Virus record (IMG/VR): IMGVR_UViG_2579778745_000003
Span: 1 to 27,110 of that record
Length of the DNA stretch: 27,110 nt
Source: a virus
Taxonomy: Duplodnaviria; Heunggongvirae; Uroviricota; Caudoviricetes
Direction: 5' to 3' (one strand)
A program made the position numbers and the translations under genes. The notes below the pieces were generated by a model. That model saw only the letters and a program-made list of their open reading frames with translations, was not told the DNA's origin and did not search any database. Positions 18,359-19,321 of the stretch are shown piece by piece. How positions within the stretch are numbered: the first letter of the stretch is position 1; every line of letters starts with the position of its first letter.

Positions 18359-19240
18359 ATGCTTTTACCCCTTTTCCCGCTACCATCGCGGCCAACTGAA
18401 TTGATCCAGTTCCGTCAGCCAAATATTGCTGATGCGATGCGTTTCAACTCGATAACGCCGGAGGAGCAAGAACAGCAGACAACGGCGTATTTAAAAGCCT
18501 TGCTGGCTGAACCCGCGAAACATGATCCACTGACATGGACGGCGCAGGACCGGATTACCGCGTTATGGTGGATATTTACTGGCTCCCGTGAAACACCGGT
18601 CGAAACATTCACCTACACCTGTAAACATTGCGGTAAAGAGCATTATTACGATTGCGATATGAATGCTCTGGCTGAAGATATCCATGTCCTGGAAGTGGAA
18701 CCGTTCATTGACGATATTGAGGTGTCTGTAGAGGGAGTGCCTTATCAATGGCGTATCGTGCCGCTTGATGGTTGGGCAATGGAAATGCTGGAGATGCGCC
18801 GTGCTGCATTGCCACCTGAAGACGACGCGGAATTCAAAGAAGCGATCGTTGATTTGCGTTTTTGGGAATTCGCTTATCAGTGTGAGCTTTATAACGATGT
18901 TAGCGGTACTCGTGAAGATCAGGCTGAGCGTCGTTATGAAACGATTAAACGGATGGCCATTGATACTGAATTTATGAAGCTGGCGGCACACATCCGGCTG
19001 GCTCATGAAAAGCTCGAACATGGTTTACCGTGCTACATCGATAAAGGCGAAATGCGTCTTCGTCTCCCGCCGCACAAATGCCCAAACCAGGATACAAAGG
19101 AGTCCACAGAGGGTGCGTATACCCGTCTGTGGGTGCCCTTTCGGGCTACCGACTTCATTCCACAGGTGGGGATTGAAAAGCTATCAGACCTTAGTGTCCA
19201 ACCTGGTTTTGTATGGGGGTATACCGATTCAGGACGCTGA
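18359..19240 (+). CDS. pmgB: tail assembly protein upstream of the tape measure (P1 pmgB by position), with a Cys cluster
   Basis: 293 aa. SD aaggag upstream. Contains CKHCGKEHYYDC and further downstream Cys residues, so possibly metal-binding. Occupies the chaperone position immediately 5' of the tape measure. Confidence 0.5.
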   Translation: MLLPLFPLPSRPTELIQFRQPNIADAMRFNSITPEEQEQQTTAYLKALLAEPAKHDPLTWTAQDRITALWWIFTGSRETPVETFTYTCKHCGKEHYYDCDMNALAEDIHVLEVEPFIDDIEVSVEGVPYQWRIVPLDGWAMEMLEMRRAALPPEDDAEFKEAIVDLRFWEFAYQCELYNDVSGTREDQAERRYETIKRMAIDTEFMKLAAHIRLAHEKLEHGLPCYIDKGEMRLRLPPHKCPNQDTKESTEGAYTRLWVPFRATDFIPQVGIEKLSDLSVQPGFVWGYTDSGR

Positions 19241-19321
19241 AAGGCTCACTGAATCCTATGCGTTTTTCCTGTTGGAGAAACTGGAAGAAAAACTTAAACC
19301 GAAGCGGTAGGCGATAAGATC

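Follow-up and report, generated by a model that had tools for sequence, protein, structure and literature searches.

A conserved UUU-CGG site probably directs +1 frameshifting in pmgB of P1-like phages to yield a second, longer tail-assembly chaperone isoform

The 27,110-nucleotide (nt) stretch of DNA analysed here (positions 1 to 27,110 of IMG/VR record IMGVR_UViG_2579778745_000003, hereafter the window) belongs to a P1-like phage and is 97.6% identical to P1 at the nucleotide level over the region of pmgB, the gene considered in this study. pmgB (18359-19240, + strand; 293 amino acids (aa), 34.1 kDa; TGA at 19238-19240) lies between the tube-initiator gene tub (17733-18344), itself preceded by a pmgC-like gene (17156-17722), and the tape-measure gene sit (19322-22684, + strand; ATG at 19322), whose product carries an SLT transglycosylase domain; the order of tub, pmgB and sit is the same in relatives. 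Tub and Sit were identified as tube initiator and tape measure, respectively, in a 2026 electron cryo-microscopy study (PMC12810830). The 81-nt gap between pmgB and sit is spanned by a +1-frame open reading frame (ORF), listed as 101 aa, which runs on the + strand from an ATG at 19005 to a TAG at 19308-19310, has the C terminus ...GGIPIQDAERLTESYAFFLLEKLEEKLKPKR and stops 11 nt before the start of sit. The initial annotation of this locus had proposed that pmgB, occupying the position of a tape-measure chaperone gene, yields a second, longer product by programmed frameshifting, possibly at one of two slippery tracts, GGTTTTG (19205-19211) or a G5 run (19215-19219). The coordinates of pmgB, the +1 ORF, the sit start and both tracts were all confirmed, as was the location of pmgB directly before sit, and the idea of a programmed +1 frameshift is supported by a frame switch and a conserved extension across relatives. 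The two proposed tracts, in contrast, are not supported.

Judged within the window alone, the +1 ORF is not beyond chance: it reaches just 23 codons past the pmgB stop, for which the probability in random sequence is ~0.3, and the -1 frame is likewise open over the pmgB-sit gap, to 19317. The corresponding 34-aa -1-frame ORF (19213-19317, + strand), which also bridges the gap, was rejected as a real gene, being shut within 5-40 nt in most relatives, and is probably a chance occurrence. The significance of the +1 ORF therefore comes entirely from comparative data. We collected pmgB loci from phage JK004 (72% nucleotide identity), from plasmids of Salmonella, Pantoea, Enterobacter and Escherichia coli (~40% aa identity to PmgB) and of Vibrio (31-45% aa identity), and from at least 190 IMG/VR viral contigs; overall, a pmgB homologue is present in 671 plasmid records. 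De-duplication left 102 unique regions, which form 29 clusters at <80% aa identity, referred to as lineages. Six further, far more distant metagenomic lineages, bringing the total to 35, were added from a full HMMER scan, in which the distant homologues are 301-317 aa long and 26-36% identical to the fused query; contigs were fetched for six.

Across the 102 unique regions, an open +1 frame extends from 38 nt or more ahead of the frame-0 stop to a point 55-172 nt beyond it, with two exceptions only, one being a contig end and the other a contig with indels, and the -1 frame is usually shut within a few codons in the relatives. The transition between frames centres on a phenylalanine codon, at 19139-19141 in the window. 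Upstream of this codon, frame 0 alone is open in the 29 lineages. Over the 48 codons that follow it, the same lineages contain no stops in the +1 frame; frames 0 and +2, with 96 and 119 stops, respectively, are interrupted in every lineage, and the mean BLOSUM62 score is 1.76 in the +1 frame versus 0.46 and 0.22 in frames 0 and +2. The +1 frame is conserved as protein in all relatives examined. The point of the switch is further bounded by stop codons: a +1-frame TGA lies two codons upstream of the UUU in five lineages, and a frame-0 stop nine codons downstream of it in several. Moreover, nucleotide +8 is an invariant T, which is the middle base of a +1-frame Ile/Leu/Val codon and, in frame 0, the wobble base of codons that vary (N, A, P, S, H, D, G, C). 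Taken together, the bounding stops and the invariant T confine the switch to approximately three codons around the phenylalanine codon. The direction of the shift follows from frame arithmetic, (19005-18359) mod 3 being 1, which gives a geometry of +1 (or -2).

The synonymous-site comparison, for which the window was set against four relatives that align with it without gaps, revealed a clean switch from frame 0 to frame +1. The difference rate at frame-0 third positions, 0.45-0.69 in every 20-codon block of pmgB, drops to 0.16-0.19 after the site, where that at frame-0 first positions, equivalent to +1 third positions, climbs to 0.30-0.33. In the segment annotated as intergenic (19241-19310), substitutions are distributed over +1 codon positions 3, 1 and 2 as 27, 7 and 5, and information content in the +1 extension has a three-base periodicity (0.69/1.06/0.33). 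In both frames, conservation extends over the first nine codons past the site (BLOSUM 1.94 and 1.72), and information is high at each of the three codon positions, as would appear to be expected if the short and long products are both made and used. The frame switch, its exact position, the conservation of the extension, the dual coding after the site and the lack of a separate start codon or of in-frame fusions are computational findings, and with them it is highly probable that a +1 trans-frame product is both synthesized and under selection.

We found no clean in-frame fusion of the two frames among the homologues retrieved by a word-indexed search of 5.8 billion proteins (84 matches) and a full HMMER search of 1.84 billion representatives (139 matches). 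Three short fragments (P0092, P0097 and P0176) cross the junction; in none of them does the frame change at the UUU site, and in two it changes more than once. We rejected them as natural fusions, their off-site indels being read as assembly errors. One viral contig (L087, IMGVR_UViG_2617271072_000004) also has indels away from the UUU site, which resemble homopolymer sequencing or assembly error.

The proposed +1 shift site is CCC UUU CGG (19136-19144, + strand), a 9-mer with a single copy in the window. The phenylalanine codon is TTT in all 102 unique loci, against a background of 46% TTT, and the base after it is always a pyrimidine, C in 101 loci and T in one. The next codon is CGG in 65 loci, CTC in 19, CGC in 14, CAG in 3 and TGG in 1, with CGG accounting for 12% of arginine codons in the background of this comparison; in the window, its frequency is 6.5 per 1000 codons, or 13% of arginine codons. 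CGG follows UUU in 24 of the 29 lineages and in the six distant ones, all six of which combine TTT CGG with an early frame-0 stop and a homologous +1 extension. Judging from this distribution, the UUU-CGG/+1 arrangement is much older than the P1 group itself. The codon before UUU is less constrained, with CCC in 62 of the 102 loci and CCA, CGA, CAG, GGC, CAC or AGG also used in some lineages. The single locus with a T after the phenylalanine codon (L084, IMGVR_UViG_2778261541_000008) reads TTT TGG (P-F-W) at the equivalent of 19142 and still presents UUU followed by a pyrimidine. The only other in-frame TTT-CGG in the window's 23 long ORFs occurs in that at 12091-12891 (- strand).

A pyrimidine after UUU lets the P-site tRNA re-pair in the +1 frame, on UUC in 101 of the 102 loci and on UUU in the remaining one, and the following sequence of events can be envisaged. 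Most ribosomes would read frame 0 through to the TGA at 19238-19240 and produce the 293-aa PmgB, whereas a fraction would shift by +1 at CCC UUU CGG; it is in this sense that we infer the ratio of short to long product. During the shift, peptidyl-tRNA-Phe (anticodon GAA) in the P site would move from UUU (19139-19141) to UUC (19140-19142), with full Watson-Crick pairing, as the rare arginine codon CGG waits in the A site. Decoding would resume at GGG (19143-19145) and continue in the +1 frame to the TAG at 19308-19310. Where CCC precedes UUU, a tandem slip would be permitted and would lead to an identical protein. We regard the movement of tRNA-Phe from UUU to UUC as the likely form of the slip, and hold with less confidence that CGG, as a slow codon, drives it. 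In E. coli, a minor tRNA decodes CGG, and in that host UUU-CGG reportedly had the strongest tendency to shift by +1 among the UUU/C-CGG/U dicodons compared by Schwartz and Curran in 1997. Overall, we estimate at roughly 80% the probability that a conserved UUU-CGG +1 frameshift gives rise to a second, longer pmgB product, serving as an isoform of the tail-assembly chaperone.

The two products would share the 261 codons of 18359-19141 (+ strand), which end with ...T-R-L-W-V-P-F and include a gp26-like domain with a CxxC motif. Downstream, the short product has a frame-0 tail of 32 codons plus TGA (19142-19240, + strand; R-A-T-D-F-I-P...S-G-R), which is dual coding with the extension of the long product, 55 codons (GLPTSFHRWGLKSYQTLVSNLVLYGGIPIQDAERLTESYAFFLLEKLEEKLKPKR) plus TAG in the +1 frame (19143-19310, + strand). 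The predicted long product thus comprises 316 aa (36.95 kDa), with the last 32 residues of PmgB replaced by 55 new ones, and is not PmgB lengthened by about 23 residues. Its predicted trans-frame tryptic peptide is LWVPFGLPTSFHR, the frame-0 counterpart being LWVPFR, and the predicted tryptic peptides of the extension include WGLK, SYQTLVSNLVLYGGIPIQDAER and LTESYAFFLLEK. The extension is basic (isoelectric point 9.2) and predicted to be helical, with helices at residues 272-285 and 297-311 of the long product. Across lineages it measures 51-62 aa and aligns without gaps, with the consensus G-[IL]-x-[TS]-S-F-x5-G-W-x2-L-[IV]-x-N-L-[TA]-L-Y-G-x-Q-P-x2-D-x3-L-P-x-W-R-A-x2-M-N-x-A-L-x-E-K-x-K followed by a basic tail; the distant lineages conform to F-G-I-[ST]-T-x-F...W-x2-[IL]-x2-N-L...G-Q-x-[IM], with 57-62 codons where the contig reaches the stop. 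The frame-0 tail varies from 9 to 38 aa among lineages, ending at different points. The extension has no match in Pfam or PHROG. AlphaFold2, run with a 74-sequence alignment, returned a predicted local distance difference test score (pLDDT) >93 over residues 1-240 and lower values at 241-260, and a single-sequence structure model of the long product was poor. The extension would supply an extra binding surface during tail assembly, a function that we propose more cautiously than the slip by tRNA-Phe.

Could the conserved +1 peptide be produced by other means? It might be the product of an independent small gene with its own start, such as the ATG at 19005 or the GTG at 19113, the latter placed 10 nt downstream of a Shine-Dalgarno (SD)-like AAGGAG, and the annotation of gene_9 in JK004 (MZ188976) and Orf23 in phi456 (OR339795) as hypothetical proteins of 29-38 aa would agree with such a gene. 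However, a +1-frame stop lies two codons before UUU in five lineages, 7 of the 29 lineages have no ATG, GTG or TTG before extension codon 12, and the candidate starts are not conserved in position. In addition, +1 conservation begins right after UUU, continuous with that of frame 0, whereas the annotated small ORFs begin within this conserved peptide and would lack the conserved half at its N terminus, making a gene with its own start very unlikely. JK004 gene_9 and phi456 Orf23 cover the 3' part of the +1 ORF and are probably mis-annotated fragments of a frameshift product. Ribosomal or transcriptional slippage at GGTTTTG or G5, the tracts put forward in the initial annotation, would exploit the only short homopolymer runs near the pmgB stop in the window, at a place where both frames are open. 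Yet the shift maps ~70 nt upstream, the substitution pattern changing frame at 19141 and not at 19205, and the tracts fall within the conserved +1 peptide, where they encode N-L-V-L-Y-G-G and are not conserved as nucleotides (a Pantoea lineage, L003, has CTTGGCCTTGTATGGCCC). In most lineages, frame 0 has come to a stop before the equivalent position is reached, and runs of T4 and G5 are short for transcriptional slippage, no homopolymer being of sufficient length for it. We consider a shift at these tracts extremely improbable.

It is also conceivable that no second protein exists and that the +1 conservation reflects chance or a constraint on the nucleic acid, for instance in an initiation or regulatory region of sit; the region is directly upstream of sit, and within the window the ORF is statistically ordinary, with the -1 frame open too. 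Such a constraint would not account for the three-base periodicity with wobble at the +1 third position (27/7/5) or for the lack of +1 stops in the 29 + 6 lineages, at divergence down to ~25% aa identity, and neither a conserved RNA structure nor an Rfam match nor an unusual fold energy was found in the region; this explanation is highly improbable. A different class of alternatives retains the place of the shift and changes its mechanism, invoking a -2 slip, a Ty3-like out-of-frame tRNA-Gly on GGN or a slip of tRNA-Pro on CCC-U. All of these would result in the same protein (...P-F-G...), and the CCC that precedes UUU in 62 of the 102 loci would allow a CCC-to-CCU slip. Nevertheless, CCC is not universal whereas UUU-pyrimidine is, a -2 slip has no possible re-pairing on the UUU-CGG sequence, and the Ty3-like variant leaves the strict use of TTT over TTC unexplained, so we view another mechanism at this place as distinctly unlikely.

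As to the protein itself, PmgB is a T4 gp26-like protein and probably a tape-measure chaperone, the latter role having been suggested previously from gene position alone (PMC9024508). Gonzales et al. 2022 (PMC9024508) found that pmgB is essential, that complete tails are missing when it is deleted and that PmgB is not detected among virion proteins; essentiality was confirmed by Piya et al. 2023 (PMC10695390). A Foldseek search of the viral models in BFVD yielded 36 matches at E <= 1e-3, the best of which (E 1.6e-8; template modelling scores 0.59/0.74) is annotated, like many of the named matches, as 'baseplate hub subunit' or 'baseplate hub assembly protein, T4-like'; one match is Gp26 of Aeromonas phage 25 (E 1.4e-3). 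At the sequence level, PmgB of the window scores 17.7 bits (E 0.003) against PF12322 (T4_baseplate), below the Pfam gathering cut-off of 24.5, and 31 of the 74 family members match this profile at E < 0.01, the best at 2.2e-5 and likewise below threshold, with the homology covering the N-terminal ~110 aa. Alignment by hhalign to the single T4 gp26 sequence recovers the CxxC motif only. T4 gp28, encoded directly before the T4 tape-measure gene, was considered as a homologue and rejected, there being no similarity, and PmgB has no match to a chaperone family in Pfam or PHROG. The short and long forms of PmgB would correspond to gpG and gpGT of lambda.

In lineages with an identifiable tape-measure start, the +1 stop lies -26 to +16 nt from that start, with many overlaps of 1 or 4 nt, and the frame-0 stop lies 54-145 nt upstream of it; several automatic calls of the start failed, and those lineages were left out. 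The placement of the +1 stop at the sit start suggests that sit is coupled by termination-reinitiation to shifted ribosomes. A more elaborate and unlikely version of this idea is that the frameshift also serves as a stoichiometry device, with sit re-initiated mainly by shifted ribosomes and the rate set by the minor tRNA-Arg(CCG) or by a long-range SD-like stimulator. If this were true, re-initiation would couple the output of tape-measure protein to that of the long chaperone, and the conserved AAGGAG might act by holding a trailing ribosome and promoting collisions. A possible consequence of the extension for genetic experiments concerns the published clone ppmgB, which rescued delta-pmgB 4.7-fold, the weakest effect among five clones (PMC9024508). 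Its reverse primer, ...AAGCTT-tcagcgtcctgaatcgg, maps to a clone end at 19240 (primer site 19224-19240; PMC9024508 Table S2), and the last 23 codons of the extension therefore cannot be encoded by this clone. A second product is thus a possible reason for the poor complementation.

Several observations weigh against the frameshift as we propose it. The weak complementation is non-specific, pmgA and pmgC having also been poorly complemented (PMC9024508). The preference for CGG is confounded, for a +1-frame glycine codon (GGN) forces NGG in frame 0, so that the rarity of CGG may not be what is selected, and some lineages carry CTC, CGC or CAG instead. The extension was modelled without homologues and at low confidence (pLDDT 54-69). 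Furthermore, no stimulatory element was found at the canonical distance, and efficiency may accordingly be low or depend on another factor: RNAalifold predicts no pairs on the 29 lineages, the downstream 105 nt fold no better than shuffled sequences (z = 0.17), and the region has no Rfam match at E <= 1. The one recurrent feature upstream is the SD-like AAGGAG (19097-19102, + strand), 36 nt 5' of UUU in the window, whose membership of the element is uncertain. AGGAG or GGAGG is present 28-41 nt upstream of UUU in 28 of the 29 lineages, compared with an expectation of 0.048 per 31-nt window, and the interval between the motif and the shift site varies (23-36 nt). The motif, AAGGAG(G), usually encodes K-E by way of the rarer AAG and GAG codons, and its occurrence in a different reading frame in two Vibrio lineages hints that the nucleotides themselves are under selection. 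Being variably spaced and too far from the site, it does not behave as a stimulator of the prfB type would.

The proposed frameshift has clear parallels among tailed phages. As with G/GT of lambda and E/E+E' of P2 (Levin 1993; Xu, Hendrix & Duda 2004; PMC5009743), pmgB is located directly upstream of the tape-measure gene, its predicted products share their N terminus, the second ORF is startless and reaches the tape-measure start, divergence of the sequence has left the need to shift intact, and tail assembly requires the protein, which is not found in virions. Unlike in those phages, the shift would be of the minority +1 type on a UUU-CGG dicodon rather than -1 on an X XXY YYZ heptamer, and the N-terminal part is longer (261 aa, gp26-like, versus ~90-140) and the extension short (55 aa). 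pmgB would be a case of the G/GT type, an event of an expected kind that entails no new principle. T4 gp26/gp26' (PF12322) offers a second comparison: PmgB has N-terminal homology to it, neither protein is a virion component, and both genes would give two related polypeptides. However, T4 gene 26 makes its second product, gp26', by internal in-frame initiation, and is not adjacent to the tape-measure gene 29. Tail-assembly chaperones of the T4-like kind are said to have been proposed, without a frameshift, by Vladimirov, Gautam and Davidson in 2022.

Other +1 systems resemble the proposed slip more closely. In E. coli prfB, which encodes release factor 2 (RF2), a P-site tRNA likewise slips by +1 to an equal or better codon during slow A-site decoding; the A-site codon in pmgB differs in being a sense codon (CGG, CTC, CGC or CAG) and not UGA, and pmgB has neither an SD sequence 3 nt upstream nor an autoregulatory logic. 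Yeast Ty1 (CUU AGG C) and the UUU-pyrimidine sites of E. coli share with pmgB a slippery P-site codon followed by a rare arginine codon, with no need of downstream structure. In contrast to Ty1 and the hungry-codon sites of E. coli, the pmgB site is natural, conserved and part of a phage structural operon, with CGG as its presumed driver. The capsid and tail genes of Listeria phage PSA, the chaperone gene of HSTV-2 and Yersinia YopN-TyeA, all unrelated to pmgB, also undergo +1 shifts that result in C-terminally extended or fused products. The HSTV-2 case likewise concerns a chaperone gene of a myovirus, in this instance a haloarchaeal one. For YopN-TyeA, a UUU-UGG site was proposed and was not confirmed by mutagenesis (PMC3789692); the same dicodon occurs in the P1-like contig L084. 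A 2016 review of recoding described the G-T frameshift as widespread 'except T4' and cited one likely +1 case, in a haloarchaeal myovirus (PMC5009743).

The reference P1 record carries no frameshift annotation, the P1 records and papers examined give pmgB as a single 293-aa protein, and no published pmgB frameshift was found in the full-text literature searched, Xu 2004 and Vladimirov 2022 lying outside that coverage. Among phages, P1 is a classic model; it is also the founding member of a very large phage-plasmid group, and its tail assembly pathway is still incomplete. With a second PmgB product, the parallel of P1 with other long-tailed phages would be complete, and the gp26-like chaperone family would be seen to use frameshifting where T4 relies on internal initiation. 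Such a product would also correct the annotation of the extension, in hundreds of genomes, as intergenic sequence or as a tiny hypothetical ORF. Moreover, UUU-CGG in pmgB would represent a natural, deeply conserved +1 site at a sense codon, with no obvious stimulator, of a type that is rare in bacteria and phages.

Finally, the distant metagenomic lineages harbour some variation of their own. In the clade L199-L206, recovered from Logan, JGI and ENA metagenome contigs, the PmgB homologues contain an extra helical insert of ~50 aa. In L205, the upstream neighbour of the pmgB homologue is not a tube-initiator gene and encodes a 437-aa protein with Laminin_G domains.

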